The notes beneath the pieces were generated by a model. It did no database searches. It had not been told where the DNA came from and was given only the letters and a program-made list of their open reading frames with translations. 64,000 bases of DNA from Rhynchobatus australiae (Eukaryota). Position 1 is the first letter of the stretch, and every line of letters begins with the position of its first letter. Positions 10,720 through 63,716 of this stretch are shown piece after piece. The stretch covers positions 60,746,570 through 60,810,569 of the forward strand of contig JAUZTB010000064.1 in the NCBI GenBank assembly GCA_034780895.1, given 5' to 3'. Made by a program: the position numbers and the translations under genes.

Positions 10720-11410
10720 TCTGAAATGAATGCAGAGATGCTGAAAAAACTGAAGAAAGGAAACAATTTATATTATAGGTTGTTGATTTTTCTGATGTAA
10801 CTGGAAAGGCTAGTTATTTTTGAATTTATATTCATTAGTGAGGGCTTTAATAAGCCAAGTTGGAAGATGAGATACTATTCCATGAGCTTATGTCGGGCTT
10901 CACTGGAACAGGGTAAAAGGTCAAGCTAGGAGTGGAATGGAAGAACTGAAGTGACAGGCAACTGGAAGTCCAGGATCACCCTTGTGGATTGATCAAAGGT
11001 ATTTGGCAAAACAGTCACCCAATCTGCATTTGGTTTCTCCAGTTCAGAGGAAACTACACCATGAGCACTTAATGCAGTGCACCTAATATAGAATCACCTG
11101 GAAGGAGTGTTAGGAATGTGAGAAGAGGTAAAAGTGTGGGTGTTGCATTTTATTTTTGCAGTTGCATGGGAAGGACTGATGATACCTGACTCACTGAGTG
11201 TTTTAGCATTGTTTTTATTTTACTTTTCCAGCAGCTGCAATATTTTACTTCTATTGTGATTTGTATCTCTCATGTTGATTTCTTACCTAATCATTCTGAT
11301 GAAAGATCATTGACCGGAAACATGAATTCTCTTTCTCAATAGTTGCTGTCTGAACTGCTGAATATTTCCAGCACTTTTTGCTTTTAGTTCAGATTTCCAG
11401 CTTCTTAAGT
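10720..11410. mobile_element. Penelope-like element remnant with inverted termini and GIY-YIG trace
   Basis: Minus strand ~10990-11085 resembles the C..C..LY.GETK.RLGD.F GIY-YIG segment. Flanked by the gcagatgctgg/ccagcatctgc terminal module, with a hammerhead-like motif at 11292-11330. Confidence 0.55.
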
Positions 11411-12137
11411 TTTTACTTTTCCAACTCAGACATACTGTGTGTGTCCTTTACTTTAACAGTTGTGTAACCTATACTGCAAATGAGGTGGAACAATTTGATG
11501 CACCCTGCTTGAATAGACAGCTTTCAGTAAAGTGTTATGTAGCATATAAAGTATCCATACTGTAGGTAATTTGATTCATGTTCTTTGTTTTTGTTTTCAT
11601 TACAAGTGATAAGTTGTTCATAAAAGCGAAGTACAAATATTCAACAATGATGACAATTTCTACCATTCGGGTTCTGAAGAATTTCTTTTCACATTTTATC
11701 TGCAATAATATTAACACATTTGGGTCATTTGGAATATATAGATTAAGAATGATAATTGCAGAGAGACTCCATTATAAAGTCTGATAATTTTATTAGTTTG
11801 ATCATTGTGTACATTTACTACCTAGATGCATTGTTAACAGTTTCCTTAAAGAAAGTGAGATAGTTGCACAATTAAGCTGTATCGATAGTCATGAATGCCA
11901 CCTGCTTGTATCAAATTATATTAAATTCTTTTCTTCCCCGCTCCCATTTCTGTTTTTACAACAACATAATCAGCATTGTCACCTTTAAACATTTGACTGG
12001 TAGGGGATGGTGACATGAGGATCTGCTATATTTTACAAGCAAATTCTGTTGACTCATAAATTTACACTTTAATTAAATTGGGTCACAGAGGAAGCATAAT
12101 AAGATTTACTAATGGAACTTGGAATCGATTCACTAAT

Positions 12138-12690
12138 TAAACAGGCCCCTTACACTCAGGAGTATTCCATCATTCTTGCACAAGCCATCAAATATAATTG
12201 AATGATTTTGGTGGACTTCTTAAATTAATTGGATGAAAAATTGTCACTTTCAGTGACAGGCAAGAAAGACATTTTGAGCAGGCTGGTGGTAAGTACTATA
12301 GGTACATATCTTATACACAATATTGTTTTCTTGTGGACAAAGTTACCAGCTCTCCTTATCATGATGAACAAGTTATAAGAACTTTGCACAAAAATATTGT
12401 TAGGCCTTATTTTCAAAAGTATTAACTCATTTAAATTTATCAATCAGAATTTCATGAATCTGGGTACAGGAATAGATCTTCCACACATTGTTCTCGACAG
12501 GCAGCCAGAGTCTTCTAAACAATCCCCACACTCGTCTGAAGTATTCCATCCATTCTTGAACAAGCCATCAAATATAATTGATTGATTCTGGTGAACTTCT
12601 TAAAATGATTAGATGAGGAATTGTCTTCCTTGCCTGTTACTGAAAATGATATTTTTAGCAGAGCTTGGTGTTAAGGGATATGTACCTGGT
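12138..12690. repeat. Diverged local direct duplication (~170 bp x2: ~12138-12310 and ~12516-12690)
   Basis: Both copies share gtattccat..cattcttg.acaagccatcaaatataattga.tgatt.tggtg.acttcttaaa. Confidence 0.85.
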
Positions 12691-13363
12691 GTATATACAT
12701 AATAAACTATTGATACCTACCCAAAGCTACTGGGGTGGGCATCAGATAATTGGTGCTCTACATCTGTTTTTCCTCCCAGAAGAAATGCATCATTTGAATT
12801 TACAATTATGGTTCCTTTTGGAATTCTGTGGGTATACCTTAATTTTCGGTCGCTAGGAGGTGATGTCACACATATTTATATAGTAATTACAGAGTTACAA
12901 ACTCAGACACTGTCATCCATAGCCAAGTAATTTTAGAATGAATATTCCAGATGCTGAAATTCTGAAATAATACAGGAGGCCAGGCAGCATGTGTGGAGTG
13001 AGAAGCAGAATTTCAGGTTGATGACTCTTCACAACCACTTTCACTCAAATTCTGAGAAACAGGATCCTGGAAGACAGATCCGACAATGATGCTAATTGAA
13101 TCTGTTATTTGTAATATGGCAGCTGAAATACACTCAATTTACTTTGCTAAGTAGTCTTGATTGTTCAACAGGTAAGGAAGGATCAGTGACTGGGAAAGTG
13201 GTGGACTGGGGATTTGCTGTTTAAGTTGTGTGTTGGTTTTGCTGTATGAGAGAGTTCTTGGTCTGGTTATGCATGATTTATCTGCAAGTAACTACATATT
13301 TCAAGTTATCACTGACTGAATATATTTTGATTTGCTGAATTTTTTGAATATTTTTTAATACAG

Positions 13364-13432
13364 TGGTTGGAAAACTGTAAAAGGACTTTTGGTGCAGGGG
13401 ATAGTCTCCAAAGAACCAATAGAGGTGCACAG
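13364..13432 (+). CDS. FRYL: FRYL exon (69 nt, not in the ORF track)
   Basis: tacag acceptor, cag|gtgagt donor. WLENCKRTFGAGDSLQRTNRGAQ, matching the FRYL WL..CKRTFGA segment. Confidence 0.92.
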
Positions 13433-14949
13433 GTGAGTGTCTGCATTTTTCCATTCTTCCACCTTCCTCTCCAACTCCACCCCCACTTCCATATGATATA
13501 TTCATCTTTATATTGATTGCTAAGTTGTAGAGGAACACTTAGAAGAAATGGAAGGTTGAGCTTTAGTATAATTATTTTCATGGCATAATTCCCCATCTCA
13601 AAGATTTTATAGTAACTATTTTACCTCAGAATACAAATTGATTATTCCAACACTTAGTATATAATGCTGGTATCATTTTCACAAATGTAGTTAATTGTGC
13701 AGGCTTCCTCCTGCACAAACTTCTACCACTATGTTTATTAAAAATTGAGCCCATAGGAAAGCAAACACTGGCCTACCGTTAAGAAATGTTATGTGTTTTA
13801 TAAATATGCCTGTTTTGTTTATGTAAATAAGAGAAATTTGCTTGTAGCATTGTAATTTATTTGTGAATAACACCCTATAGCATATTGACCATATTTATGT
13901 TAATCTTTTGCAGATTAGATAATAAGCTTGTAATTTGTACCATGTAACTAAATGTGATGTTACAGTTAGGTTGAGACAAACAGGCTCTCTTGGAACTACA
14001 TCAAATTGATTTTTCTTCATTTCAGAATAAATAATGTCTGGTTGATAATTTCTTCCGTTGAAAGTTCTAACAAGTGTGCTCAGCAAATCATATAGCTAAT
14101 TAGTGAAAGAAACAGATTCAGTTGCTCTGTTTCACTTTCAGTTTTTCCATAATAATATAAATGAGATTAGTTAACCATTGGTATCAACAGTGTTATTACT
14201 CGTTCTTAAACACAGGAGTAAGTTACATGATGACACTTCACTGTGAGATGCAAGATACTCCCATAGAAAACTGGCTGCCTTCAGTTAAGAATATGTCATT
14301 TTTCTAACTGCACTGTTGGCAGTGTATTTTCAAAACCCTAATGGGCCCATTCAATATTTCAACAACATTATATCTGGTGCTTTAAATTCACGTCTTGAAG
14401 AAACTGATTCGAAAAAAGCTTTGAATTGATGAATAAGTTTGATTTGATCAATCAATACTTTCTTGTATTCATAATTTTCATTCATCTTAACATTCATAAT
14501 TTTCAGTGTTGACATTTACAACCATCCTGTTTTGTAGCACGGAAGAAAGCTGTTTGGCTGTTTGTGCCTCTACCAACTCTGCTAAGGCATTTCAAAACAT
14601 GTAATACCATGTATTTTTCTTGAACTATGTGTCTTCTGCAAAAAAATGTTTATCTAATGTTCCTTTGAAAAGTAATGGTTTCTGTTTCACCACCTCTGCT
14701 CACAAAACATTCCATCCTTCAACAAGAATTCTTCCAGCCTTTTTTGCTTTCTTAGTAATTTTGGATTTATGCTTTTTACTCACTAACTTTCAATCTACAG
14801 AACTAGTGTTCCCTGTTAATTCTATTAAAAGTAGCAAATCTTCACAGCTGTATGGTTCTCTCCCCGAATTTTACAAAGAGTAGCTGCATAGTGCTGTAAC
14901 TATACATCTTCCAAAATTCTCTTGATTTATGAATTATTTTGTTAGGTCA

Positions 14950-15790
14950 GAAGACTGTTCATGTCAGTTCACTATTTCAAAAACACAAACAGGAGGGGAT
15001 TGGCAAATTACAGACCCATTATCCTAAGGACAGGGTATATAAAGACTTGAGTTTTAGCTGATCAGCATGCACCCATTGGATTTGTAAAGCGTAGATCTAG
15101 CCTAGTGAGCCAGATTTGAATTTTTCTTTTTGAAGGGATGACCAAAGTAGNNNNNNNNNNNNNNCCCCCCCCCCAACAGGGGGACTTCCAAATGAAAAAA
15201 TGATGAACAAAATGATTATTAGCTGAATAAAAAGCTCATGGAAATGGAGGAAAGTTATTACTTGGTTAGGAAAATGCCTGAGTGGTAGGTGTTAGAAAGT
15301 AGGATTAGTGGGTAAGTACTCAAATTTGGCACAATGTGACTTATGCTCTTCTGCAGCAATCAATATTGGGGCTGCAACTATTCACCGTATAACTATTCAT
15401 GATTGAAAGCTATGTATTGAAGTTTGATGACACAAAGATAAATGGCATTGTAAGTACTAAAGCATTAAATTACAAAGAGATATTAAAAGATTAAGCATGT
15501 AAACTGATTGTGACAAATGGATTTCAGTGCAGGCAAGTGCAAGGTCATTTGTTTTGACTCATACTCTAAATGCTAAGAAGNNNNNNNNNNNNNNNNNNNN
15601 NNNNNNNNNNNNNNNNNNNNNNNNNNNNNNNNNNNNNNNNNNNNNNNNNNNNNNNNNNNNNNNNNNNNNNNNNNNNNNNNNNNNNNNNNNNNNNNNNNNN
15701 NNNNNNNNNNCAGCCATACAAAGACCCTGGTAAGACTATACTTGATGTGTGTGAGTTGTTCTGAACATCACATCTTGAGCATTGCACCCA
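14950..15790 (+). mobile_element. Degenerate CR1 LINE RT fragment (gapped)
   Basis: aattacagacc (NYRP), cagcatgc..ggatttgtaaa and tttgatgacacaaag (FADDTK-like) remnants. Confidence 0.65.
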
Positions 15791-18700
15791 AGGATAGGCT
15801 TTTATCTACTGTGGCGTAGATATCTAAGAATAGGAGATCCATAGTGTAAAAGGCAGAAGTCATAATAGGGAATGGAAAAATTGGCTGAAACAGTATATGC
15901 AGTAAAAGTAGTGACAAACTGAAGTGTGGTGATAACAAACAACAAAATCATTGCTGTAATGGAAGAGAAGGCATTGGACAAATTAAGGGGATCAACAATT
16001 GTAAGATTTATGCTTAATTCAGGATTTGACTGACAAAATCTTAGGGACCATTGGACTACATTCATCAACAATATTTTTGTAAATCACATTGAAGAAGCAT
16101 TTATAGCACATGCACACTTTCTGTTTAACTGTCTCTGTTTATATGATTTATTTTATGAGCTGAGATGACCATTCAGATCTGGAAACTCATTCTTCCTGTT
16201 TCTGTTCTGTCCACATAAGCGCATTCTGTTAGTTTCCAAAATCTTTGCAATTACTAATCCATGTATGTGGCCTTAAAGAATTCTTCCTGTTTAACATTCC
16301 AAAGAGCTAAACTAACTTGTGTGTTTGATGAAAACAAGCAGACTCTGGTTAAATGCAACTTTCATAACACCTCACAAATATTCTTGGGTTTCTGCCAATT
16401 AGCCTTTTCTAAAATGATTCCACAATAACCCCTGTGGTGGCTATACTTTATTCAATGCAAGGAAGACATGGGCATAGACAGGCAGAATGCAGCATGAGTT
16501 ATTTTATCCACTAAGCCTGAGAAGAAGCTGCAATCTCCAAATAATCTCCACTCCTTTTATTGCCATACCTCCCCTGGACAGTATGTTATATCTGGTCCTT
16601 TCAACCACCCATCTTGTTTTTCAGGTTATGTTTATTCAGCAGTTCCAGGTCTCTTGCCAAATGGCTTGCACAACTCTTCCTTCCCTGAAACCACTACTTA
16701 ATATTTTCTTTATATTGCACATCATTATGGAGAGGAGTGGTTGGCTTAATAACAAGTGTGTAAAACTTGCATTCAATTTCCAGTCTAATTACAGGAGTGC
16801 AATGTCATGCAGTAGGATCAAGCTGATTGATATTTGCATCATGCATCCCTCTGCACCCCTTCATCATTGATTGGATGATGACCATTCCAAAAGATGAATG
16901 GATGAGTTTCATGCAAGCATTGGCACTTGGTCATTGTCCTAAGGGAAAGAAATTAGTTAGCTGCTTTGCCAGAAGCAGGACCTTTCCTGTGTATGCTATG
17001 CTATCAAGATTACATTAACCAGTTTAGCCTTGGATCCTCCCAGGCAGGCTGCCAATTCACCTTGCCATAGAATTATGCAGAAAGATGCTCCCCCTTTGAA
17101 CATTTTTGGGAATTACGTTAAAAGTATTCTTACGCCAAATGGTAAAAATGTTTTAAATGTTACAAGATGGATTGCTTGATAAGAGATGGTTATTAACACT
17201 CTCCTATGACTTTCATTGCCTTTCCATAATGAAGCACTCTAAACTGAGTCAGATGTTTTACTTAAATTCATTGTTATTTATTATATGCTTCTATTTATAA
17301 ACCCCTGGATGCTATCATTCTTTTTAATGGCTGCACATAGATTTTCAGGGAATTAAAAACAGTGCCATCTAAGTTTCCTACTCTTTCTGATAAATGACCT
17401 ATATTTTCCTGAAACCAAATGTCCTTTCTTGTCAGCAGTTTTCAAGAGTGTGGTTCCTGCATTCAAGCTCATATATATAGAGCAAAACATAATTGGACCT
17501 ATCCCTGACTTCAGGGGATATCACGTCCTGCACTCCTGTAAAACAAGCAAGATCCATTTACCTTAGTTATTTGGTTTCAAATGTGGTAAACTCTGAGACC
17601 TGCTGCTGCACTTGACATATCTTATACCTGAAATTTGTAAGGTACTTTATTGAATATTATCTGAAAGTTCACTGATACAGCATTGAATGCAATTATTAGA
17701 GCAAAATATTGAATGTGTTTAAAATGTTAAACAGTTTGAGAGTTTGGTTCCATCTGAGCCAAATGCTTCTCTAGATTTCAGATTCAGTTGTTTGAATTTC
17801 CTGTTTAACCAGCAGTGTCGTTTATAACATTTCAGTACTGCTGCCTTGAATGTTGCAAGTGTCTTTTAATAAATATTTTACAAAAGTATTGTGCAACATT
17901 AGGAAAGTATTTCAAAAGTAAATGTGCCTTATTTCATAGCATTGTGAAAGTAGATTTGCTAAGGACATGCTCAAATTTATATCTTAATTATCAAATTTAA
18001 AACTAAAATCTATAAAATTTATGTATTTTGAACTGTGCAAGTTCTCTAAAATACATAATCAGAAAGTGCTTGACAAAAAATCAAAATAACAAGCCACATC
18101 TGTGGAGAGAGAAAATGGAGTTTACCTTTCAACACCATGACATTTTCATAAGAAGTAGAAAATGTTACAGATTTTAGGCAAGTGGAGAAGGGATTGGGGA
18201 TGCAATCAGGAGGAAAAATCAAAAGGGTGGATCAAAATAAAGGCAGAGGTAAATACATAGCAAAAGGGATGATGGTGCAGGATGAGTTAGTTTTCACTTT
18301 GACCAATGCCTTTCTTATCCTTTCTATTAATATGGAGAGCAGACCTCTACACTTTTCCCAAGTATGGTTTAACACAGGTTCAATATACTTAACTCAGTGG
18401 TGCACAGTTCTTCACTGTGGAGGATCAGTTTTCTAATCCAAACTATTTCTAAGCAAACTCATGAAAAACATGCATTAGCTTAACCATACACAATCTTTTA
18501 CCGATATCTTAAAAATATCTGACACAAATGCCTTAGCTCTTGCTGCTTCACTCACTTTCTGCTTTTGACCTTGCTCGACTTGTGCCCATCAAATATCATC
18601 CCCCTCAATTATGCAGCACAGACCTATGCACACCAGTGCTCTATCTATTTTACATAACATATTCATGCCCACCCCAGGACAGAAAACCTTGGTGGAGAAT

Positions 18701-19599: not shown

Positions 19600-19960
19600 A
19601 TGATACTTTGCCTACTAACCTTGGCCAAACTGAGTGGCTGCCCTTGACCCCTGTTGTTTTCAATTCTAGAGCTTGCTGTGCATTCTGCTCCCTCTTTCCT
19701 GAGTCCAAATGCTCTGAATGCAGTCATGGGTCTATCAAAACTCTTAAAGATGTTGTATCCACTGCTTTCCATTGACTTCTCTGCCGCTTCTTAAAAAAAT
19801 TCGATAGGATTATCCTGGCATGAGTTTCTTGTTTGAAATTATGCTGACTACAGTTTTAGTTTTTAAATTTTTTCTATCATTCAATGAGAGGATTTTTCCA
19901 ACTAATAACATTAAGCTAATTGATTTGTGGTTCTCAGAACTTGTTCACTCATCTCGTTAA
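19600..19960 (-). mobile_element. Degenerate CR1 LINE fragment
   Basis: Reverse-oriented CR1 RT remnants (ttggccaaactgagtggc...tggcatgagtttcttg...aagctaattgatttgtggtt). Confidence 0.45.
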
Positions 19961-20982: not shown

Positions 20983-21000
20983 CAAATGGAAGTTCTAGCA
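20983..21000 (+). CDS. FRYL: FRYL 18-nt microexon (QMEVLA)
   Basis: Branch point cactaat at 20927-20933, long pyrimidine tract, tgcttag acceptor, caa atg gaa gtt cta gca, then gtaagt donor. Phase 0-0. Fits the QME.LA peptide preceding ELELCRRLY in FRY/FRYL proteins. Confidence 0.9.
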
Positions 21001-22559: not shown

Positions 22560-23060
22560 AGGGATGATTGACATTTTGGACTAAGTGTAGAGGAAAAATA
22601 GCCAATATAAAGAGGTGAGAGGGAGGGGTGAGATGGGGGCTGGTTGGTGATGTAAAATTCCATTTGGATAGTCTGCAACCCAATGGTATGAACATTGAAC
22701 TTGCCAGTGTCATGTAACCCATGCCTCCTGTGTTCCTTCCCTGCTCCTACCCTTTCCTTTGTTTACTTCTCCCTCACCTCCCCACCTGGTTCCATCTGCT
22801 CATCACCACCGATCTATCCACCTGGGTTTCTTCTCCCCTGGCCTACCTATCCTATCCTCTTTCCCCATCTGCCCATCATCTGTGTACCAGCCCCTGTCTA
22901 ACCCCTCCCTTGGTTATCTTTCTTCTGCACTCTCAGTCCTGATGCAGGGTCTCAACCCGAAACATCGACCATCCTTTTGCCTTGACAGACGTTACTTGAC
23001 TTGCTGAGGTCCTCCAGTGGTTTGCTTTTTCCTCCAGATTCCAGCATCTGCAGTCTTATC
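22560..23060 (+). mobile_element. Penelope-like element 3' region with hammerhead-like motif and terminal module
   Basis: ttggatagtctgcaacccaatggtatgaacattgaa (PLE ORF end, L..LQPNGMNIE), a pyrimidine-rich tract, gtcctgatgcagggtctcaacccgaaacatcgac, then ccagattccagcatctgcagtc. Confidence 0.65.
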
Positions 23061-24789
23061 TCTCCACTTCCTTCAATTATTTTGTTTAACAGTAATTTTC
23101 AGAAATTGTGTTAGATATTTGGCATTTGAAGTACTGTAGTAAATATTAGCAAATTAAGAAAACCTGAAACTGCACTGAGAAAACAAGTAGAGAAATGAAG
23201 GCAATAAAAAAATAGTAATTTTTAACAATTTTAATGTGAAATTTAACATTTTAGCAACTAAACACATCTCTTTAAGATGTTACAGCAGGTTGAATCTTAA
23301 ATTATCTGTCTCACTTATTATGAAGACAAGTAGTAATTTTGCAGTAAATGCTAAATGTATGGAAGAAAAGAAACTTCAAGTGGACCTTTAGAGTCATTAG
23401 GCAGGAACACAGACCAGTGCTCTATGATGTCACAGTTAAAATCTGAAAATATTCACAAGTGAATGATTTGACTCATTGAAGCTTGTCTCTTTTTTGTACC
23501 AGTGTTATCCAAGTCAGAGTTCCATTTGGCTTTTACCCTCTTACATTGACATGTATCACATTTCACTGATTAAAATACTAGACGTTGGTCCAACAGTTTC
23601 ATTGTAATGTTTAGGTTTCATCTTATCTGTACGATAATTGATAATTTTTGTTTGATAATGTTCCTGTGAAACACTGCAAGACGCATTACTACATTAAAAG
23701 TGATACATCAATTCAAGTTGTTACTTTCTGGGCATACGTTAATTGATTGCATTGCTCTATGGGTACTGTGAAATCAGTATTTGAAAATTAAGTAGAACCT
23801 TGGAGTTTAAACTACTAGTGGTGTATGGCTTAAACTCTTAATAAACTATTAACAATACATTATTCCATGTTTAACAAGCAAAAGTCATTACATTTCCCAG
23901 AATTTTTCAATACTGGTTAACAAACAAAAATATTGAAACTATTTGTACATATTTTAGCAAAGCATTATAGTTTTGTTAAATATAATAGTAATTAATAAAC
24001 ATTTTATCACATTATTAAATTACAAGATGGTGTTGATAGTTAAATATTCACTTGCAAGGCTATTATTACAGCATGTTTACAAGTTTGAATGTAATATATT
24101 CTGAACTATGTTNNNNNNNNNNNNCCCATAATTCTGATTGCACAAAGTATCTATAGAGTTTCACTCCTCCAACAACAATCTGCGGTGTAATTTTCAACAC
24201 TTATTTTTACTTTTCTGAAATTAATTCATGTGAATTGTTATGGACTGAGTCAAATGAAGGTGTGGTGAACAACTGCCTTTCATGCAAGAAGGCAGGTGGA
24301 AAATTTAATATTAAACGTGGGTGTGTCAAAAGTAGGACGGTAAATGAATGAGAGTTCTGGGAAGCCAGAACAATTAAAGGTTGGAAAATACACAAAGAAG
24401 GATTCTGGCTGTGCTTAATGGGATGTCATAACATGCAAAGATTATAATGAATTTGGCAAGTGAATTAAAGGCACAGATAATTGTTCAAGTATGATATTAT
24501 AGCGATTGCTGAACATAGCTTAATGAGGTGCAGGAATCATAGCCTTGTTGTTTTGGTTACATGATTTCAGGGAGGATGGGAGATTTTTTTAAAAAATCAA
24601 ATAAAATATACTGATGTTTTAGAAATAAAGAGCAAGAAGATAAGGAAAGAATGGGGCTGATTAGGGACCAAACTCTTTTGTGAAGATGGCCACTTTGTGC
24701 AAGTATGTGTTATACATTCAGAATGGTGCCAACATTGTGATGAGGGAGGAAGAGAAACTGTTCGATGAGTTAAACAAAAGAAAAGTATT

Positions 24790-29899: not shown

Positions 29900-31020
29900 A
29901 TGATAAAAACAGAAAATGCTGGAGATACTCAGCAGGTCAGAAAGCATTTGCTTCTATATTTAATCAGAACTGGAAATGTGTGAAAACAAGTGTTTTACAT
30001 TGCAGAGAGGGGGAGGAGTGGAGTGAGCAAAGGGAATGTCTGCAATATGGTGGAGATCAAGATTGCCCAGGTGATGAATGCTTGTAAATAGCAGCTGATC
30101 CATCTGGAGGGGTGCATGTAGGGGAAGATGAATGAGGGCAGTAGAGAGAAGAAAAACAGCACTAGAACCATGAGATGTATAACAGTCATTGCTGGAAATT
30201 TGAAGTACAAGAGAATGCTGAATATACTCAACAGGTCAGGTAGGGCTTGTTGAGGGAGGGAACCTCAGTTAATGTGACAGGTGAATAACCTTACATGGGA
30301 AGTCACCAGTTCTGAAACAAACAGGAAAGGCTAGTAATGCAACATTGCTGGCTGCAGGACTCAACACTGAATTCAACAATGTGCCTAGATAGAAAATGGG
30401 GTGCTGGAATTTCTGTTGGTCCTCAGAACAGTTTAAGAAGCCAAAGACAGATGCCAGAGTGAGAGTGGATGGAGAATTAAAAGTTACAGGCATCTGGAAG
30501 CACATTGTCACCCAGTCTACGTTAGGGTTCCCCAACATAGAGGAAACCATATGTTGAGCATTGAATGCAATATGCTAAATTGTGCAAGTGAATCGCTGCT
30601 TCACTTGTAAGAGACCCTGTATGATGGGAGAGATGAGGTAAAGGGTCAGCTGTTGCATCTTCTGCAGTTGCATGTGAAAATACAATGAGAAGGGAAGTGG
30701 TTGGTGGAGATGGAAGAACAAACCATGGAGTCACATGTGGATAGAATGGGGGTGGGAGGATGCAACTGATGGTAGAATCATGTTGACTCGACAGAATATA
30801 GAGGCTGATGGGATGGAACCCAAAGGCAAGGGAACCCTACCCTTGCTGTGATTGGGAGAAGGGGCAAGTAGAGAGGATGTGTTTGAGAGCCCTTTTAACT
30901 ATACTAGAGGGAAGGCCGCAGTTAGGAAGAAGACATCTCAGGAGCATTGGAGTGGAAAGTGTCATCATCAGAACAACCAACATAACCAGAGGAACTGGGA
31001 GAATGGAATGGAAAATGTGA
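29900..31020 (-). mobile_element. Penelope-like element remnant with GIY-YIG endonuclease trace
   Basis: ORF 30522-30734(-) ends NLAYCIQCSTYGFLYVGEP, the PLE GIY-YIG signature (N..Y.I.C..C...Y.GET). The terminal module aaaatgctggagatactcagcaggtcag is adjacent. Confidence 0.7.
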
Positions 31021-33549: not shown

Positions 33550-34633
33550 GTAACACATGACTATTTTGTTCAATAAATGTTAGGAGGAATCCAGATCCCA
33601 TTTTTTGTTATGGAATTAACTCATTTCCAAAGGTTAGCAGGCAAACAAATGAATTCTAGAGTTACATTATGAACAATGCAACATGATTTGACAAATTAAT
33701 GCAACTTTCATGCAATTTTCTTTAGAAGTCCTAAATGTGAAAGTAATAAAGTGCAGTTGATGTCTAATTTCTGCACGATAAGAGCACCAGCTTACTTACT
33801 CCATCAATATTCATGATAGATTTTAGGCTTGCAATTGAAAAATCTGGAACGTTACTCAAAGGATTTTTACTTCTGAATGAATTTTCTCTCACGCTTAAGC
33901 AGCCTTTACTTACAAGGAACCTGACTACATTGTGGGGAAAATCCCAATATTAATGTACATGGGGAAGCATGGACTAGAAAGTCTTTGACCATGTAAGCCT
34001 CCCCTTTCCTCCTAATTTGTATAATCTACCTAGCTGCAGATTTGCTGAATATCCTTTTCATAAATAATTTCCCACCCAGTTATCAAAGCTGATGCAAGCT
34101 AATTTCAAATGATCAATTCCTTGACCAAACTTTGCTGACTTCTTTCTGAGGTTAGTTGTTTCATTGCCATCACCAAGAGGATCAATATGCCAAAATCTGC
34201 TAGAATCTTGGATCATAAGCAACTAGCCTGCCACAAGCATTAGTTTCATGGGCGTCTTAATTCTTGAATGTAATACAACTAAAATGAATACCAAACTGGG
34301 TACCCTACTAGACTCATGACACTGTGACCAAAGTTTTTTTCCTTGTGTTAAACTATAATACATTAATACAACATCTTGCTGATTTTACAAACTGACTTTA
34401 CATCCTAAATGTTTACAAATACTTGATGATATGAAGATGAAATAAAAACTGCAGATTCTGGAAATTTAAAATGGAAACAGAAAATGTTAGAGATACTCAG
34501 GAGGTCAGACAGCACCTGCGGGAGACCTGCTCAGTATTTCCAGCAGTTTGATTTTAATCTTGATAAGATCTACTTAAATTGGTAAGCAGTTGTTACGTTT
34601 GCAATTATTTTAAAAACTATAATGAAGATTTAG

Positions 34634-37980: not shown

Positions 37981-38019
37981 AAAGGGTAGTAGTGAATTCA
38001 ACAATATGGAAAAAAAACA

Positions 38020-38960
38020 AAACTGCTGCGACTGGAAATCTGAAATAAAAAAACGCTAGAAACATTCAGCACCTGTTGAAAGAAAGTTAATGTTCCAGGT
38101 TAAAGACATTTGTCAGAACTGGGGAAGAGAAAACTAGTTAATTGTTTCGAATAGCAGATGATGGCAAGGGACAAATCATGTAAAGGGGATGTCCGATAGG
38201 CTGAGAACAGCGTGGCCGCAGAGAATACCTAGTTAATAGATTAGAGGGCAGTCAGAGCAAAAGCAAAGAAACATGAACAGTTCCAAGCAGTTTTAGACAA
38301 TGCATAGGTAGGCGCAGTTAGTGGAGAGAGAAACTGAGCCCGTGTTACACATGGGTGATGTACAGCAAAATTCACTAGTCCTGATACAGTTAGAACATTA
38401 CAGGCCCTTCTGCCCACGATGGTGGGCCGACATTTTATCCTGTTCTAACTTCTATCCAACCCACATAGCCCTCCATTTCTCCATCATTCATGTCATCACT
38501 TGTTTTATTCAATATCGAGTGCCGAAGACAGCAGTGCACCCAGCTAAAGGCACCACCATTCAAGCTTTTATTGGCCTTGGTACAATAGTGCAGGAAGCCA
38601 CAAACAGGCTAGTATGGCGAAGAATTAAAGTGACAGGAAACAGGGTCAGCCCTGCAAAGTTAATGGGCAACAACTTTACGGAGCACTTGCAATCTGCCCT
38701 TAGTTTCTCTAATATACAGGAGACTGCACTGAGCACGGAATTCAGTACACTAGATTGGAAGTGCAAGCGAATGACCTCACCTGGAGGAGCTGCAAATTCC
38801 TGATTGGTGGCAAGTGAAGTGCATGTGTTGCAACTGCAGCAGTTAGGTGCTGCAAGGCGGCAAGTGGTCGGAGACAGAAGAGCAAACCAGGGTGTCAAAG
38901 AAGAGTTCCCGTGGGGTGGGGAAAGAGAAAGGAGGGCGTGTCAGCTGCTAGAATAGGCAA
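38020..38960 (-). mobile_element. Penelope-like element remnant
   Basis: Terminal module and degenerate hammerhead-like motif at ~38025-38125. Minus-strand GIY-YIG trace (FTCTSNLVY..., ttcgcttgcacttccaatctagtgtactg) at ~38680-38780. Confidence 0.55.
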
Positions 38961-40162: not shown

Positions 40163-40320
40163 AACATCTGCTGGAGGAACTCAACGGATAAAGCAGCAGC
40201 TGGGCATTAGGGTCTCGACCCGAAGAGGCGAGGATTTCTTTCCTCCCCTCAAGTGCTGCTCGACCCACCGAGTTCCTCCGGCAGATGGTTTGCAGCTCAA
40301 GATTCCAGCCCCTGCAGTGC
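40163..40320. repeat. Short hairpin-like (inverted-arm) repeat of the Penelope-terminal family in ZAR1 intron 1
   Basis: tctgctggaggaactcaacgg..agcagc pairs with gctgctcgacccaccgagttcctccggcaga. Similar copies at ~51600-51720 and ~53480-53615. Confidence 0.75.
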
Positions 40321-42683: not shown

Positions 42684-44116
42684 CTAGACGAGGATTTTGT
42701 TTTTTTTTGAAAAAGAAAATGTTTCCACTGTAAATTCGATTTCTATGCAATTAAATATTAGGACATTTTTTCTAAAAGTTGCAAGTTCTATACATTTGTT
42801 GTTGGTACCATTTAGACATACTGTAAACTACACGTGATTATAGATTTTGACGTCCGTGTAAAAATAAAGTAAATCGATCTATGTTTATAGCTAGTGACTC
42901 AGTCTGCACCCCGTTTTTGTTTTGATACCTTATAAAATGATTTCAGTTTTGCGGGTTACTCCTGAGTATTTATTTGAGTCACATTTAATCCTTGCGTATA
43001 GAGTGTTTTAAATTGTGTGATGTCTACATTCCTGATAAATCAGTATTCATAGCTTTTTCTAAAAAAAAGGTATTGAATTACAAAATAGTTAGAAGTAAAC
43101 ATTTAGAGTTGGGAACTGAAAGCTGTAGTTNNNNNNNNNNNNNNNNNNNNNNNNNNNNNNNNNNNNNNNNNNNNNNNNNCAGGCTAAGATTTCATCCCGT
43201 ACCACTTCACGGAATGAGACAATTCTATTTTACAACATAGCTGTACCGTGCTGGATTGAGTACCCTTTTGCTTGTCGTTTTCAATCATCTCTGAATGGAG
43301 AAAGGATCTGTGAATTGTGATTAATTCTTGTTTACCACGGTATTTAATAAGATGAAGTAATGTTGTGAAGCCTTAACTAATTAACTAAACTACAGGAACG
43401 GACAACACCACAGTTTAACATCTCGTTCCAAGTACAGCACCGACAACTACACTGGAAAGTGGGCATCTATTATGTACACGATGGATAACTGGGGTTAATT
43501 ACCAATTCAACTCTCAAACGATAACGAGTTGATGTTTTCTTGTTTCTGACAGCGCCTGAGCCAAAGTCAAAAGTTAAATTGATAATAATAAAGAATTCTT
43601 TGCTATTAAACTGTTGTTCCGAGGAAGGATCTTCGACCTGAGACGTTAACGCTATTTTACTTTCCACAGACACCTGCTGAGTATTCCCAGCATTTTCGGT
43701 TTTTGTTTCAGATTTCCAGCATCTGCCGGCTTTTTTGTTTTCTTTAGTTGTTTTGATAATTCATGACATCAAAAAAGCGATAAAGTCGCCTTTAAAACTT
43801 TGCACGCATTTAAGTTGTTAATCTTTAAAAACGGAAGATATTAAGACTGCTCAGGACACATTGGGAGGTGACTTGAGTGACTTGACCTGTTACTCAGGTC
43901 ACATGTGTTGAGGATACATTTTGACTGACTTGACCTGTCATTTTGTGCTTTGCCGCTTATATTTGAATAAGTCAAGACTCGGGATTGTAGTTTCGTTTGG
44001 CAAAAGCAGCGTTTATAAAAACACGACCAAAATTCAGAAACAAATGGCGCAACTCCTCAAATTGGAAAATCTCAATGGAGTATAAATGTGCTGACAGATG
44101 AACAGTGACCGATGAC

Positions 44117-50634: not shown

Positions 50635-52064
50635 CGAGAGGGCAGTCCTCGCCCCTGTTCAATACAAGTCTGATTAGCATCTCGTAAAGTCAAACGCAAC
50701 CCACCCCCCTCCCCCCCCCCGCTCTGCACAAGCCTCCCGTTTCACCCTGCCCGCACCGCTTTGCTCTCGCTAACCTTTCAGTTTGGTTCGCGGTACTTCT
50801 GGGGGTTTGCGCTCCTGGGATTAAATGCCACAGTTGCACCTCGCGGTCGGACGCACGGGGAGCGGGACTGGCCGGGGATGGTGTCTGTGGACCTTGTTTC
50901 ATTCGGGATTTCTTCAAGCCATCACGAATGCTCGTAACGTTTCACGAGAGGCGGGGAGACAGCCGACCTTGTGTCTGTCTCTGGTCTCCGGGTGCCGGGA
51001 CTGCGCCTATGGTGAGAAGGCAAAATGCCCACACCCGGCGCTTTGGCAGTTTGACCGCACGGTCCTGGGNNNNNNNNNNCTGGGAGAGGACAAAACCATG
51101 CGTCTGTCAAAAGCCAGTTTTGCTCCCGATTTAAATGCAGTTTCCCCCCTTGGGTCACCCTGCCCCGCGTTCAAACAGTGCCCGAGCCTGTAGCCGGTCC
51201 TGCGAGAGGATCCCCCTCCGCCCACACCGCCAGCTCTCTGTGCAAAGCCTCCCCGACCCTCGGCTTAACGGGCACTGAGACATTAAGGCGAGTAATCGTA
51301 TGTGAAGTGGTTTCAGAGTTTTAACAACCGGAACGTCGGTCGCCTCTGCATTTGGGCGCTAATTGTGAATCCAGTTCAAGTCCTAACTGATCCCAGTGTG
51401 GAGCGGAGCGGGTTCATTGCAAAGACAACTCATCCCCAGCCCCGGTCTGAGCTGCGTTACTTTTGCAAACGAGCTTCACCGAGGAAGGCGCTTCGATGTT
51501 CGCCCTGAGGTGGAGCCAGTTGGACAAGGTGGGAGAAAGCCGTTAAAAGACAGCAGCAGGACTCCCGACGGAGCGAACACACACAGAGTCCAGTGCAACG
51601 AACAATCTGCTGGTGGAGCTCAGCGGGTCGAGCAGCATTTGTGGGAGGAAAGAAGGAGCTGTCGGCATTCCTCCGGCAGATTGTCTGCTGCTCCAGATTT
51701 CAGCATCTGCGGTCTCTTGTGTCACACGCAGAATTCAGACGGCTCCTAACCGTCTGTTTACTGTACATTTGGGCTTTCTTTTTTTAAAAAGTATTGAAGC
51801 AGCAGGTGCTGACATCTGAGTTACTGTTTTGAAGGGGGGGGGAACCAAGTCAAACGGCGGGACGTGCAAAACTCCCCCCAACCCTCTTTTAAGTCCCTCT
51901 CTATCTTTTCTAAACGGTGGAAACCCCGGAACATTAAGTATCCGGCGCCGTCCTTCTCTCAACCAGACCTCTGCAATGGCCACAGCATCACAGGTATTGA
52001 TCCATACTGATGCTCTCTCTCGACCCATGTTGGCTGAGCTCCTCAGGTGATCGGGGTCGGCGGC

Positions 52065-52220: not shown

Positions 52221-53984
52221 CAAGGTCGAAGTGCCTGCATTACCTTATCAATACTTCCAGATTTGGTTAAAACAAGACCAGTGAAACGATGACCAGCGGA
52301 CATCGCTGGATAAACTGGGCGCTTAAGCAGATGGCGCTGGGGGGCCGGGTCAGATGGCCCCGGGGCGGCACCTTACACAACCGGTTCCCATTCCGTTGCG
52401 CTCACTCTCCACCCACGCCCGACCGCCTTTCTCAATGTCATTGGCCAAGCGCCGTGCTAACTAGTGGCAGCTGTGAGAGCGCCCGGTCACACTGCGAGGT
52501 GCGAGGAACGGTCCCAGAGATTGGAACTGGGTTTGATTTCAAGATGAAAGGTCAGTAAAGCCTGACGACTGCGGCCTCAGGGTGATCCAGTTTAGACCCC
52601 CCTCCGCTCCCCGGCGACATTCTCAGTGACACCGCCGGCTCCTCCCTGGTTCCCCGTCCCCAGCCTCGGGGTCTCACTGCCGCTCCGCACCCCTCACCCG
52701 CCACCCCTACTCGCCAGTGTAACGCAGCTCAGGAGACCCCGTAATGTTGGAAGTAATATTGTCGCGGTGTAATATGCTCACCGCGGCACCTCCCCAGCCC
52801 GACCAGCAATCGCGGCTCCTGCTGCTTAAGGTTTTAAGGTTTAAGTTTCCACAACTTCGGTTGTGGAAAGATCCACAGCGCAGGTCAATGGGACTAGCGG
52901 AATAACATTTCGGCACAGACTAGAAGGGCCGAATAGCCTGTTTTCTGTGCTGTAGTGATCTATGGTTCTAGCGACTCAGCCCGGCCTTATCCCCAGCAGC
53001 CTAGGATATTATCTCAACGTTGTGAGGCTGCGAGCTCCCGGTACAATCTGTTTGCTAATTTTCGAGACATAGGAGGGCGGGGGGATTCAGTCCGAACACA
53101 GACTCCGAGAAACAGCAGTCGCCTCTTCGGTGCTGAGAGAAGGAGAAATTCAGGTCTGACGCCGGCAGAGATCAGGGTTCCGCACCTCCCACTGCACCGG
53201 GTGTGGTCACTGCCATCCACCCTGGGTGTGGTTGGCGTAGGGCTGGTGCTGGAATGTACTTCATGACCGAGAGAGTGGATTCCCCGGCTCACTGGGTGCG
53301 GACAATTGTCAGCAGATCTCTTGAAGCTGCCCCGCTGATCTGATCGGTGGCACCTTTCCCGCCTGTTCCCCGCAGCCTTTGTGGTCCAAACATCCAAACC
53401 GTGAATGTACTCAGTGCCCACAGCGCCGCAATTCTCCAAGCGAACCAATTCCTCCCCATTTTAAAGAGAGACACGCAAGACTGCGGATGCTGGAATCTGG
53501 GGCGACACACAATGTGCAGGAGGGACTCAGCGGGTCAGGTCTCGACCGGGAATGTCGACCGTCCTTTTCCCTCCACAGATGCTGACTGGCCCCACTGAGT
53601 TTCTCCAGCGCTTTGTGTGTTCCTCCCCATTTTAATCCTACGCGGGTGACCCTTTATCCCAAAAGTACGCCTAGTTCTCCATTCCTCTACCAGGGGAAAT
53701 ATCCTCACATCATATTCCCCATTTCAGCTGGGTCTGACTTCTTCAATACTCATTGTGTATTTGCTTACCTGACGAGAAAAAAGAAAGTGCTGCTAAATAC
53801 AATGGTCAGGAATTGAACAATTGCACTGTAGCACTGTGCATGCAGGTGCTGTTATCACCCCATTTGAATGTAAATTCTAAAGGCAGTTCCAACCACATTC
53901 CACCGTAGCCCTGCCCTGTTCAGTGACTAGAACTCTACTATTTGTCTCTGTCACTGTTCTGATACAAAGTTGCATTAAATGTAA

Positions 53985-55172: not shown

Positions 55173-55781
55173 TGTATTGTGAAGGGTTGTGGCTGTCATG
55201 TGACAACACTGACCCCCATCTGGTCAGATGACAACACTGACCCCATCTGGTCAGAAGACACACCACTGTCAATCAAGGTTTGGCTCCACCCCTGCCCCTC
55301 TGGGCACACCTGATCATTGGTCGCTTTAAACACCTTTGTACCTGGCCCACTTAGCCATTGGCTCTTTTGAACCACCTGGGCTGGACCACCCCAGCCCTCC
55401 AGCACTATAAAGAGTGCCGCATGTGCTTGGTTCCTTCTCTTTGTTGTTTCTGAGGGACACTGAGGTAAGCTGTACATTGCTTAAGAGTAGTTAGTTAAGG
55501 ATCCTTCTAGCATAGAGCTGATGCTTGCACTGAGTCAATGGGGGTTGTAGCTGTCATATTGTTTCTTCCTTGATTTGCTTGTGCCCAGTTTGTTGTGTGT
55601 GTGAATGCATCTCACCCTTGTTGCGATCCCCCCAAGTCTGTGATCACCTGTGTGCATGTATATGTGTGTTTTGCCCCTGTTATTTCTTCTGTGTTTGTCT
55701 TTGTAAATAAAATCATGTTAACTCCACAGACTGTGTCCAGAGTTCTTGCCCTTTAAGATCTTATGAACTTGTCCTACAACA
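55173..55781 (+). mobile_element. Putative solo LTR (609 bp)
   Basis: TGT...ACA termini with imperfect TIR (tgtattgtg / tacaaca) and flanks ggcaa/ggcag (TSD-like). It splits a host repeat (cagcaattaggca|gcaacag). Internal ~28-bp tandem repeat, ATTGG boxes at 55316 and 55357, TATAAA at 55406, AATAAA at 55706. Confidence 0.7.
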
Positions 55782-55929
55782 GGCAGCAACAGTTGAAAGA
55801 GAAAAACAAGATTACATTGTTAAGGAAATGAGCTTTCATCAGAATTGCAAAAGAGGGATGTGACCACTGGGCCAACATTTATTTGGATATGTTCTGTAAC
55901 AGGAACTTAAGAAGCAGCTGGTGGAGATC

Positions 55930-59229: not shown

Positions 59230-59799
59230 GTAGGTCACTGTAAGGAAACTCTCTACGTCCCAGGAGGTTTCAATGCTTCATCTCACTTCTTTCTGCTGTC
59301 GCTTTGAAATGTGGCCTTTTGCCTTTGGATTGGCAGTAATGACTTTCATGCACATCTGAGCCATCCAGAGGGGCTCATCTCCTACAAGTGCGATGAGAGG
59401 CAGTTCAAAGTGTTTGGGTGTGGGCAGAGAAAGCTCACACCTTATTTGATATAAAAACTCACTCTGCCCAGATAACTTTTCTAGTTTTACTTCAAATTCC
59501 TCCTGGCATTTCTGATTTATTCTTTTTTTCAGTTGTCATAGGAATTATTTTTATCCTGCGTATCACTTCTGTTATCTCCAGATGAGAATTGAATGCCATA
59601 ATCAGATTTGGATTTTCTTATTCAACCTGTTTGTTTTTCTTTACTTGACTTGCAGCCATTGTCTCCTTAGTCATTGCATTTACTCTCGGTAAATCCTTCT
59701 TTATTTGCCATATTTTGCTATTTTTAATAGTCCTTGATATAGTTTTTTTAAGGTCCCTTTCCCACTTCTATGCTGCGTCACTTTAACATTGATGTCTAG

Positions 59800-59918
59800 C
59801 TTCCTCATAGGAGAAGATGGAAATATCTATGAAGGACGTGGATGGACAAAGCAAGGAGCCCATACCTATGGATACAATTCAAAAAGCCTTGGAATAAGCA
59901 TCATGGGAAACTTCATGA
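59800..59918 (+). CDS. PGRP coding exon 3
   Basis: ctag acceptor completes N. FLIGEDGNIYEGRGWTKQGAHTYGYNSKSLGISIMGNFM, then a|gtgagc donor. Confidence 0.94.
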
Positions 59919-60084
59919 GTGAGCAAATATATTTAACTATTCTGACCAAAATTTGGTTTTATACCAATTGGAGTACTAAAGCTGCTAAATTTTATGTAAT
60001 ACTTCTGATGACATTAAACTTCTGATAACGTGAAAATATTTATTGAAAGTCAAAGAACTAGGTGTACAGATAAGTTGGGTGGCT

Positions 60085-60404: not shown

Positions 60405-60715
60405 AGAGATCTGAAGAAAAAACAGAAAATGCTGCAAACATTCAGCACGTCAGGCAGTATCTGTCTCTATCTTTCCTCACTCCTCTATTAACCAGACAGC
60501 TCTGTAAACCTTTGTATCACTGATGTAACCGTGGTCTCACCCTATCGGAGATACTCCCCTATCCATCCCTTCCCCATCTTCTCTGCAAAGTAAAACTAAC
60601 TTGCTTTCTCACTTTCCTGGTTCTGATGAAGGTTCTTTGACCTTGAAAATTAACACTATTTGTTCCTCAACAGTTGTTGTCTGCTGAGTGTTTCCAGCAT
60701 TTTCTGTTTTCATTT
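60405..60715. mobile_element. Short non-autonomous Penelope-type element with inverted termini and hammerhead-like motif
   Basis: aaacagaaaatgctgcaaacattcagca (~60419) is inverted relative to tgctgagtgtttccagcattttctgtttt (~60682). ctgatga...gaaa at 60623-60648. Confidence 0.7.
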
Positions 60716-62487
60716 AAGAATATTAATATCTTTTTTTAAATGTCCTGGTGCATCAAAGATGTGCTTAATTCTTCATCTAATGGGCACATTAAATAAATTC
60801 AGTGTGCTGGTTGAGCACTGGAGGGTTACTCATTGAGAGAAGTAAAGTTAAAGTTCAGACTTAACCAGTTATTTGAGGCACCAGATCATTGGTTAGACAT
60901 GGGGAGCACAGCCTCCCTCTGTGCTGTTACAATTCCACCATTCTCTTCTGCGACATTTCAAGCACTGCTATTTGTGTCGTGATAAAGCAGAAAAGCCAAC
61001 CTTTTAGAGCAAGGGTCCAGATAAGCATAAAAAATATTGATTGACTTGTGTATGTGAATGAGACCCCCAGTGACAAAACAACTAGTTCCCATCTTACTCA
61101 TAAAATGAGTCCTCCCTTTCCCACCAAACCAAGAATTTGTCACCTGATTCACCAAACGTTGGATCTTTGTCCACACTTCCAATGAACAGTAGTTATGCTT
61201 GTGACATGAAAATGTGGGAGTTTCAGTTCATTATCTGACCTCGTGTTCCTTGTCCTCTTTTCAGTCTTTGTTATGGGTCATTCTTCTTCAAAGCCTTTCT
61301 CCAGCTCAGTGGGATTGTCTTCAGTTTGACTCATTCTTAGCTGTTTGATGTAGCCAGAGGATGTCACCAGTCTTTCTGCTGCCACATTTTTTTCCTCCAA
61401 GGACCTTTTGAGTATCCTTTGATTCCCAAACTTTGCATATTAACATTCTGCTTTCTTCAGTGATGCCACCCACAGAAATAAACTCAGCCTTTCCACATAT
61501 ATTAGATGCACTACCCAAACACTCTGCAACTTTTCCTCTAGGCTCTCCATTGCTTCTCTGTTATCTTTTTACATCCGATATCCAGTCTGGAATGAGCTGC
61601 AATTTTCTTCAATAAAACACAGGGCCGACTGAGACCGTTGTATTTGGCCTCTGCCACAGTTTCCATACCCTTGCCACAGATTCCATTTTCTTCCGAGTCA
61701 TGATCTCAGGCTATGCTGGACTGGTTACAATCTCACATTCCCACTTGACCACAGGCTGAATTTTGAATCCATATCCTCCCTGACATTTAAAAAAAAATCA
61801 CCTTCTATCTGCATAACATTTTCTGTTTCTGCCCATCTGCTGCCAAATCCTTCACACTGTCAACCATTCCAAAGCTCAGCTTATGCAAATCTCTGTACAC
61901 AATTCGGAGTTACCAAACGTTGGTGTGTGTGACATAGCTGCTCTATCAGTAGGAAGCAGGTGTGCAGTAACCTAATCACTCATCTGTAAAAGGACCATCT
62001 CATGGCATTTGTACCCTATGTATGTATATCTATGATAATAAACTTGAACTTGACAACTGGTAGGTTCTTAGAGAACATTGTTTATGGTTTTTTGTTTCTT
62101 TTTCTTGTAGAAGCACCTGATTTTCTTTCTCATTGCAGTCAGTGTGAACTAGCAATGGTTTTAAGCACAACGCTTTTGAGAAGTTATTTTAATATCAATA
62201 CAGTTTAGTTAAATTTAGTTGAATATTGATATAATTTTATTTGTTATTTACTTTAATGTTATTGTTTTTTATTGTCATGTAAGTTGTGTATTACTTATGT
62301 TAATTTAAGTTTATATAATTTATGTTTACAATGTGCCATGCTGCTGTTGCAAAAAAGCTAATTTTCATGGCATTTATATCCTGAGCATGTATGCCCATGA
62401 CAATTAACTTGAACTTGAGAATTTAATTGTAGAATAAATAAATGGGAAGTAAGAGGCTGCTCAGATTAATGTCCCTGTTTGCATTAG

Positions 62488-62663
62488 GTAATGCACCAAA
62501 TAACTTGGCACTAACTGCTGCCCAGAATTTGATTCGATGCTTAGCTTCGAAAGGTTATCTGGCATCCAACTATGTGCTGAAGGGCCACAGGCAGCTGGGA
62601 AGAACCAATTGTCCTGGAGATTCACTCTACAATATCATAAAGAAATGGTCGAACTGGTCCTAA
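62488..62663 (+). CDS. PGRP terminal exon; full protein 180 aa
   Basis: attag acceptor completes S (A|GT). NAPNNLALTAAQNLIRC...NYVLKGHRQLGRTNCPGDSLYNIIKKWSNWS*. Candidate AATAAA at 62950. Confidence 0.93.
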
Positions 62664-63679
62664 TGCTGTTCATAGTTTGAATGCTGTTTCTTTAAATACT
62701 ATTCTGATATTTGCTTATCTTATGCCTTTACGTGATTGACATAAACTAACGTGGAAAAGTAATGCGATTCATATTTTTGTGAAGTGTATCTGCCCTACAT
62801 GCATAATATACTGCTTCATTCTTATGCCAAACAGCTTTTTAAATGTATGTGGTAACTTTGACATTCTTTGTCTTTATGAGTAATACATGGATATATGATG
62901 GCTATGTCTTTGGAACTGTAATTTTCAATATAATACATCAAATCATCGCAATAAATTAGTGAAAATATAAATCCAAAAATGAGGCCAGATTGTCTTGCTG
63001 TTGATATGTAGTGTGCCATGAGCACCATCTGCTGGGCACATTGAATGGTCAATTATCAAGGGATGCACAAACACACCTAAAATCAAGTGTGAACACAATT
63101 TGGATGAGAATTATACACCAGCAGCCACATTTACTTCCAATGACTTCTACACTTCTTGCAGGTGCTTGTCTGGAAGTATCCCTCATACTGTGGGCGTTCT
63201 ATGTGCAATGTACAACAGCCTCTATATACCAGTAAGACATAGTTTGTTTAAAGAAGCATTTCAGAATATATATGTTTTCTGCCCTGGAATTTAATCACAA
63301 GCAATAATTGATGTAACAGAGATGGTGCGCCCAAGCTCAGCTGCCCGGTGTGGGCTGAGTCTTTGGGATTTTGAGTAGCTATTTCTCTGAGTGTTGCCTT
63401 TTAATCACTTCCTGTCCTGCACAAAAATCATAGGTCATTCTTTCTCTCCCTGACAGTATTTGTTGGCTTTACTCTTCTAATGTGAGGTCATCAACCAGAT
63501 ACATTAATCTCACCTTCCTCTCATTACAGACCCTGCCTGGCCTTCACTTGCAATCTGTCTGCCAGTGAAGCCTTTCTTGCTGCTTGGGATCAGTGTAGTA
63601 GACAATGACAAACCGCTGGAAATAAAGACAGAAAATGCTGCAAACACTCAGCAGGTCAGGTCTGTGGGAAGAAAAACAA

Positions 63680-63716
63680 GGTTAATGTTTCAGGTCAAAG
63701 ACTCTTCATCAGAATT
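63680..63716 (-). ncRNA. Minimal type I hammerhead ribozyme-like motif within a repeat
   Basis: Minus strand AAUU CUGAUGA AGAGUC UUU GACCU GAAA CAUU AAC. Core boxes intact and stem II pairs; stems I and III are degraded. Confidence 0.5.

Follow-up and report, generated by a model that had tools for sequence, protein, structure and literature searches.

Dispersed repeats with damaged minimal hammerhead motifs as probable 5'-truncated 3' ends of a Penelope-like retrotransposon

The window, by which we mean the whole 64-kb stretch of DNA analysed here, contains parts of FRYL-like and SLC10A4-like genes together with many copies of a ~130-bp repeat module. Two of the copies lie in sense orientation in FRYL-like introns, between Fry_C exons at 7346 and 27487, which bears out the intronic location proposed in the first-pass annotation. 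One is a pLTR stub of subfamily A at 11290..11420 (+) with a minimal hammerhead motif at 11293-11327, and the other is a stub with a pyrimidine-rich 3' UTR at 22758..23065 (+), whose motif occupies 22936-22969 (+). Further subfamily A stubs are located at 43614..43741 (+; motif 43616-43650), at 60613..60731 (+; motif 60620-60654), with an opposite-strand stub nearby at 60464-60390, and at 63615..63721 (-; motif 63715-63681). The stub at 43614..43741 sits between SLC10A4-like exons of the minus strand and is therefore antisense to its host. All five motifs had been annotated before and were recovered within 1-2 nt.

Profile searches also recovered the degenerate copies that had been suspected, namely a stub at 12934..13043 (-), a subfamily A stub with a broken core at 38011..38124 (-) and, weakly at 12-15 bits, a stub at 55780..55848 (-). 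Head-to-head inverted stub pairs were found by profile search at 34439..34557, 40164..40319, 51596..51719 and 53469..53636. Both GIY-YIG endonuclease remnants that had been noted are real and lie on the minus strand. The first, at 10827..11082 (tblastn E 9e-12), is followed by a weak module match at 10794-10708 (-) and is opposite in strand to the copy at 11292; a shorter stub consisting of the downstream module only (11175..11252, +) is likewise inverted relative to the adjoining endonuclease remnant. The second, at 30759-30498 (tblastn E 9e-8), belongs to the longest copy of the window (30171..30975, -), in which the linker and GIY-YIG remnant (30975-30498), the 3' UTR and a heavily decayed module (30309-30171) all have the same sense. 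A third GIY-YIG remnant in the window, detected at the DNA level, covers 38871-38693 (-).

The first-pass annotation had counted roughly 20 copies in both orientations; by profile search we found 26-29 on the two strands. A profile trained on the window gave 29 module copies with nhmmer (E<1e-3), and one built from genomic copies outside it gave 26 (>=20 bits), with no match in reversed random loci. In a random genomic sample of 478,592 bases, 104 copies were detected (control 0), corresponding to ~217 stubs per Mb and, by extrapolation, to ~4x10^5 copies genome-wide, in agreement with the very large number that had been predicted. The module forms at least four subfamilies, and the order within the element is 3' UTR, hammerhead, ~100-nt module and ORF start. 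Head-to-head pairs contain 32 of 130 unbiased copies, compared with ~5% expected from density alone by our own arithmetic. The 3' ends cluster in two classes, at model positions 110-125 and 150-159, consistent with the 30-40-bp tail of Penelope-like elements (PLEs; PMC8557442).

The Penelope origin of the family is supported by near-complete copies (L130-L134, L141 and L148), in which RT, a CX4CXXC linker, GIY-YIG and the 3' hammerhead are joined. The RT domain matches RVT_1 at E 4e-7, while the GIY-YIG match (E 3.5e-4) lies under the Pfam cut-off and the copies are frameshifted. RT occurs together with GIY-YIG at the C terminus in a single ORF region lying upstream of the repeat, as in EN+ PLEs. 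The traits of a pLTR are present as well: the 3' end is continuous with the 5' end of the ORF, there is a tail, and 5' ends are copied in inverted orientation, for instance over 232 bp at 86% identity in L132. Among first-look candidates in the genome, numbers fall from 38,292 for the endonuclease to 10,118 for RT and 1,454 for the N-terminal region. The cut site precedes a conserved ORF start by ~135 nt. At the 30 best ORF-start loci the module tail is usually upstream of the ORF, and 4 of these loci have the hammerhead in register. Translations read by eye contain a CX2-5CXXC linker between RT and EN, a motif that is common to Neptune and Nematis. Judged from this linker, the element likely belongs to the Neptune clade. 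Neither an intact ORF nor a full-length copy with hammerheads flanking the ORF on both sides was found in this assembly, which has many gaps inside elements, and the long open frames among the candidates proved to be mostly N runs. The L134 ORF found no match among PDB sequences.

Genome-wide, 4,618 motifs with an intact core were found in subfamilies A, B1 and B3 (control 0), which upholds the assignment to minimal type I hammerheads with a palindromic stem III; they represent ~1% of the ~4x10^5 stubs. The complete set of features (CUGANGA, stem II, GAAA, palindromic 15.2-16.2, NUH and stem I) occurs in A, B1 and B3, and is incomplete in the C9 subfamily and in all five motifs of the window. 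The motif at 11293-11327 has intact core boxes but has lost the stem III CpG and, as a correction to its earlier description, has G at H17. The stem III CpG is also lost at 22936-22969 and at 63715-63681, where the core is otherwise intact and the outer stem I pair is mismatched. At 60620-60654 the stem III palindrome is destroyed. The copy at 43616, noted earlier for retaining CGUU and its stem I, is not near-intact, because it carries U4C and A14G despite its preserved stem III palindrome. All five copies are thus damaged and likely inert as ribozymes.

CpG decay had been proposed as the cause of inactivation. Loss of CpG is indeed the most frequent lesion, affecting 45 of 54 unbiased copies, whereas stem III CpG loss is the sole lesion in just 10 of the 54. 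Retention at non-CpG positions is 469/535 (0.877) in the core versus 1123/1297 (0.866) in the downstream block; the copies decay neutrally, the core at the background rate. At the level of the masters, too, the core does not clearly exceed the downstream block in conservation. Of the stem covariation described earlier, the stem I part comes down to one varying pair (C-G 12 and U-A 9 of 24), which amounts to one event. The stem II part is not seen between subfamilies, which differ by G-C versus G-U, a one-sided change at a CpG. The count of double-change pairs was reached by 126 of 500 shuffles. An Rfam scan, the kind of descriptor search that had been recommended, gave no match at E<=1. In folding predictions for the full module, with one copy each, z-scores were -1.8 (B1), -0.6 (A) and +0.2 (C), and the catalytic form was absent among the minimum-energy folds.

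The C after G8 in the copy at 22936 is a subfamily state rather than private decay. We counted 1,146 otherwise intact motifs with C at the conserved position 9 and 276 with G or T. C9 is a subfamily trait; a core of this kind would probably cleave weakly or not at all, yet it was amplified. It is conceivable, though rather unlikely, that in one whole lineage C took the place of A9, or was inserted between G8 and A9, that this lineage nonetheless came to make up ~1/4 of the hammerhead-bearing copies, and that younger subfamilies may have regained A9. If so, the genome would record a natural loss-and-regain experiment on the need for PLE ribozymes or, alternatively, C9 would be an undescribed active core variant. 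In a 62-nt tree, C9 and B1 rows are intermixed. A 275-column tree, covering 36 of 96 candidates since 60 lack the shared upstream region, requires 2 changes and contains no subfamily A row as root. Our literature search retrieved no A9C or A9-G12 hammerhead variant; the survey of PLE variants by Lunse et al. 2017 may describe C9. The role of PLE hammerheads is discussed as an open question (PMC8557442, PMC11167929). Whether amplification needs cleavage could be tested directly with sister subfamilies differing at one conserved core base.

Overall, we consider it most probable (about 0.88) that the repeats are 5'-truncated 3' ends, or pLTR stubs, of an RT and GIY-YIG encoding PLE, likely Neptune, each with a minimal type I hammerhead that would have to dimerise within an intact tandem transcript in order to cut, and that is likely inactive in these decayed single copies. 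This reading builds on the observed truncation gradient, inverted 5' copies, two 3'-end classes and neutral decay. The element protein would nick DNA and, as demonstrated for the anole element (PMC11167929), begin reverse transcription on uncleaved RNA; the start would lie inside the module, ~60-100 nt downstream of the cut site. Most such events would abort after 100-400 nt. Stub formation would not need hammerhead cutting, which, if it takes place, would process tandem precursors ~135 nt upstream of the ORF.

The copies had been called retrozyme-like and non-autonomous; a retrozyme would be an independent non-autonomous element that excises itself from tandem transcripts, circularises and is moved by PLE proteins. 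RNA of the family is abundant, rare internally deleted copies (L262 and L224) have two direct hammerheads 400-600 nt apart, and tandem non-LTR retrozymes have been described for one chondrichthyan in a 2026 preprint, which derives them from pLTRs (bioRxiv 10.64898/2026.07.22.740005). However, both motifs of L262 are decayed, the module is none of the 7 TRF arrays in the window, and same-strand neighbours within 700 nt (28 of 130 copies) are near the density expectation. Inspection of the three closest exact direct pairs, apparent dimers, showed that each spans a 100-N gap and is likely an assembly duplicate. The hammerhead is minimal, without canonical stem III and loop contacts. Finally, the RNA ends anticipated at the cut site did not appear: read starts and ends showed no pile-up there in three RNA runs, which are fragmented libraries chosen by species label and possibly from another species. 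Since tandem arrays, a canonical hammerhead and, in DNA copies or RNA reads, a pile-up of 5' ends at the cut site were not found, we regard a retrozyme as improbable and the copies as truncation stubs of a coding element.

Slightly less probable still is that the stubs are reverse-transcribed 3' cleavage products, shaped by a ribozyme active in vivo. Many stubs measure only 100-140 bp with the cut site near the 5' end, but the majority span the entire hammerhead, and just 2 of 95 random copies start near the cut site (53/54 in the model), within positions 50-59, although local alignment blurs the 5' boundaries of old copies. Moreover, hammerhead mutants leave in vitro insertion of the anole element unchanged (PMC11167929). 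That some intronic copies are domesticated regulators cutting or splicing host pre-mRNA, for example of FRYL, is very hard to credit: the two sense copies in FRYL-like introns, and a pyrimidine tract with CAG that follows the motif and looks like a 3' splice site, are offset by broken motifs in both copies, core decay at the background rate and no canonical splice joint in the best-supported 15 of 102 joints.

The truncation-stub reading places the family among known PLEs. Minimal hammerheads have already been published for PLEs of fishes, amphibians and reptiles, where they occur in Xena, Poseidon and Neptune of fishes, coelacanth, Xenopus and reptiles (PMC4209133). Ours resemble them in being type I with no stem III beyond the palindrome, in the extra nucleotide between 9 and 10.1, the G10.1-C11.1 pair, the short stem I and the thousands of mostly single copies, whereas stem II differs, with 5 bp and a 2-3-nt loop. 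In the supplement searched for that paper (PMC4209133) no chondrichthyan term was found, and its passages on PLE hammerheads do not mention a C9 core. A literature search combining hammerhead, Penelope and shark retrieved nothing relevant; the family may already be listed in the supplements of the 2026 preprint.

Neptune-clade EN+ PLEs (Craig et al. 2021, PMC8557442) share RT followed by C-terminal GIY-YIG, a zinc-finger-like CX2-5CXXC linker, strong 5' truncation, inverted 5' copies, a 30-40-bp tail and a hammerhead in the pLTR. Our family departs from them in the stub density of ~217 per Mb and in that no intact ORF was found, and the likeness is read from the linker rather than from an RT tree. 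Poseidon PAc of Anolis (Frangieh et al. 2024, PMC11167929) likewise has its hammerhead at the pLTR-ORF junction, two 3'-end classes downstream of the cut site and no RNA-seq ends at that site, but its ORF starts inside the hammerhead, whereas in our family the cut site precedes the conserved start by ~135 nt, and the clades likely differ. Metazoan non-LTR retrozymes (PMC7229834; bioRxiv 10.64898/2026.07.22.740005) have in common with our family a type I hammerhead, the link to PLE pLTRs and short non-coding copies. In contrast to our single or inverted stubs with minimal motifs, they form tandem units of 150-450 bp, typically with canonical hammerheads and abundant circular RNA (Cervera and De la Pena 2020, PMC7229834). 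Our data add another vertebrate genome, with a high density of stubs, to an association already known, and caution that intronic hammerhead motifs of this kind are to be seen as fossils rather than regulators.

We found that the repeat in the window is real and belongs to a known kind of element. The five hammerhead motifs reported by the first-pass annotation are all present at the positions it gave, and its recurrence of the module, the 3' end (pLTR) of a Penelope-like element (PLE), on both strands was borne out by profile searches, which returned 29 copies at E<1e-3 or, with a profile built from non-window copies, 26 at 20 bits or more. The same non-window-trained profile found 104 copies in a random sample of 57 genome stretches of 10 kb (478,592 non-N bases) and 0 in the reversed control, which extrapolates to about 4x10^5 copies in 2.23 Gb, counting large contigs only. 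A core-intact hammerhead pattern gave 4,618 exact matches in the genome (control 0), and an Rfam scan for known RNA families gave no match.

In the window, a remnant of the linker and GIY-YIG domain, a pyrimidine-rich UTR and the module follow one another in one shared sense at 30171-30975 (-). Genome searches showed that longer copies carry RT (RVT_1, E 4e-7), a CX4CXXC linker, GIY-YIG (E 3.5e-4, under Pfam's cut-off) and a 3' hammerhead; no intact ORF of the element was found in these searches. First-look candidates drop from 38,292 for EN to 10,118 for RT and 1,454 for the N-terminal region, and these falling counts, which vary with the query used, fit strong 5' truncation. Among the 30 best ORF-start matches, the module tail usually directly precedes the ORF start, and in four the hammerhead lies in register, about 135 nt 5' of the start codon. 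Head-to-head pairs account for 32 of 130 unbiased copies, and at one locus (L132) a 232-bp stretch of the 3' end is repeated in inverted orientation at the 5' junction. Module 3' ends form two groups about 35 nt apart, and a 9-nt inverted repeat closes the module in all subfamilies. In eight further loci (L241, L244, L248, L250, L258, L262, L264 and L268), internal deletions fuse the start of the ORF to either the end of EN or the 3' UTR.

Clustering of 219 copies on the sequence 3' of the motif separated the subfamilies. Subfamily A is old; it diverges by 17% from its own majority and holds six of the seven window copies that entered clustering. The corresponding values are 11% for B1, 9% for B3 and 18% for the C group. 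A, B1 and B3 differ at N7, H17, loop II, 11.1 and the 2.1-1.1 pair, all of them hammerhead positions tolerant of change. The covariation proposed for stems I and II was seen at one stem I pair (C-G in 12, U-A in 9 of 24 hand-picked copies), and stem II varied only as G-C versus G-U at a CpG, so that this support is thin. In predicted monomer folds of L096 and 22936, the 5' core box pairs with the NUH strand, which would block cleavage.

None of the five window motifs is intact. The motif at 11293 (+) has lost the stem III CpG and carries G17, 22936 (+) combines C9 with CpG loss in stem III, 43616 (+) carries U4C and A14G, stem III is destroyed at 60620 (+), and CpG loss is the sole lesion at 63715 (-). 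CpG decay, previously claimed for most copies, was confirmed in 45 of 54 unbiased motif-covering copies; it was the only lesion in 10, and two were intact (one in the random set under a stricter pattern). Retention is 0.877 at non-CpG core positions and 0.866 in the downstream block, and this near equality indicates no copy-level selection.

A9 is a conserved hammerhead core base. Searches that kept all other core positions constant and varied position 9 gave 4,618 matches for A, 1,146 for C and 276 for G or T; C occurs in 13 of 54 unbiased copies. Since this transversion outnumbers the other two changes combined by four to one, it must be the state of a master element. EN remains lie upstream in 2 of 30 C9 loci, and trees of copies gave no direction for the change. 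Because A9 is conserved, either the ribozyme was dispensable in the C9 lineage or a C inserted ahead of A9 is tolerated. Section 8 of PMC3088659 describes core changes as usually lowering activity and does not treat A9 to C; our literature search, whose scope did not include the main survey of such variants, found no paper on the change. One C9 copy has a new predicted hairpin that sequesters the 5' core and would block cleavage.

A retrozyme-like system, as first suggested, is not supported, as no tandem array in the window involves the module and no pile-up was seen at the cut site in DNA copies or RNA reads. Same-strand neighbours within 700 nt were seen for 28 of 130 copies, near the density expectation, and of 95 random copies just 2 begin within model positions 50-59, the interval around the cut site (53/54). 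Three close direct pairs were considered as ribozyme dimers and rejected, since all straddle assembly gaps; the repeat ends duplicated either side of 100-N gaps at L117, L118 and L119 are assembly artefacts mimicking tandem dimers. A few internally deleted copies do have two hammerheads (L262, L224), those of L262 being direct, about 600 nt apart and both decayed. In three raw RNA runs, chosen by species label and possibly from another species, a young copy attracts 13,773-31,075 mapped reads out of 11-13 million, from both strands and with no pile-up of read starts or ends. In a second mapping, sense reads exceeded antisense reads by about 3-4:1 in the UTR, assuming conventional strandedness of the libraries, and the cut site showed no pile-up, fragmented libraries being a weak test of cleavage ends.

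Beyond the anatomy, truncation, inversion and decay observed in the copies, a mechanism may be proposed by analogy with an anole PLE, for which PMC11167929 reports that hammerhead mutants left insertion unaffected and that cleavage required the protein. On that model, the element protein would nick DNA and prime reverse transcription within the RNA 3' of the hammerhead, with uncleaved RNA as the template. Most stubs (5'-truncated copies) run through the cut site, so their templates cannot have been cut there. Any cleavage would serve to process tandem precursors immediately 5' of the ORF and would need two motifs paired through the palindrome; the in vitro activity of such minimal hammerhead dimers is low (PMC4209133). 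A pyrimidine tract and CAG lie 3' of the hammerhead in all subfamilies, and a second acceptor-like site precedes the ORF start. Introns in PLE pLTRs are already known; among the best-supported RNA-read joints (15 of 102), none is a canonical splice joint.

Many stubs lie in the long introns of a FRY/FRYL-like gene, of which the window holds the 3' part (5228-33550, +), with Fry_C exons matched at 5228, 7346, 27487 and 33356. A 305-aa first exon at 40643-41560 (-), without a Pfam match, resembles ZAR1, and an SLC10A4-like gene with an SBF domain occupies 42168-50516 (-); the order FRYL-ZAR1-SLC10A4 is that of vertebrate synteny. At 49811-50018 (+), a fragment of the element's 3' UTR, pyrimidine-rich and lacking the module (81% over 109 bp), stops exactly where the first coding exon of the SLC10A4-like gene ends. 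Adjoining this gene is a peptidoglycan-recognition/Amidase_2 exon at 59738-60022 (+; E 1.9e-8). Frames at 48946-49566 (+) and 56288-56827 (-) have no Pfam match and resemble CR1/L2-type LINE ORF2 remnants.

The motif has the same architecture as the minimal type I hammerheads described in PMC4209133. In PMC8557442, a CX2-5CXXC-type linker marks Neptune or Nematis, and EN+ PLE insertions are characterized by a pLTR, an inverted 5' copy and a 30-40-bp tail, all of which are matched by this repeat.
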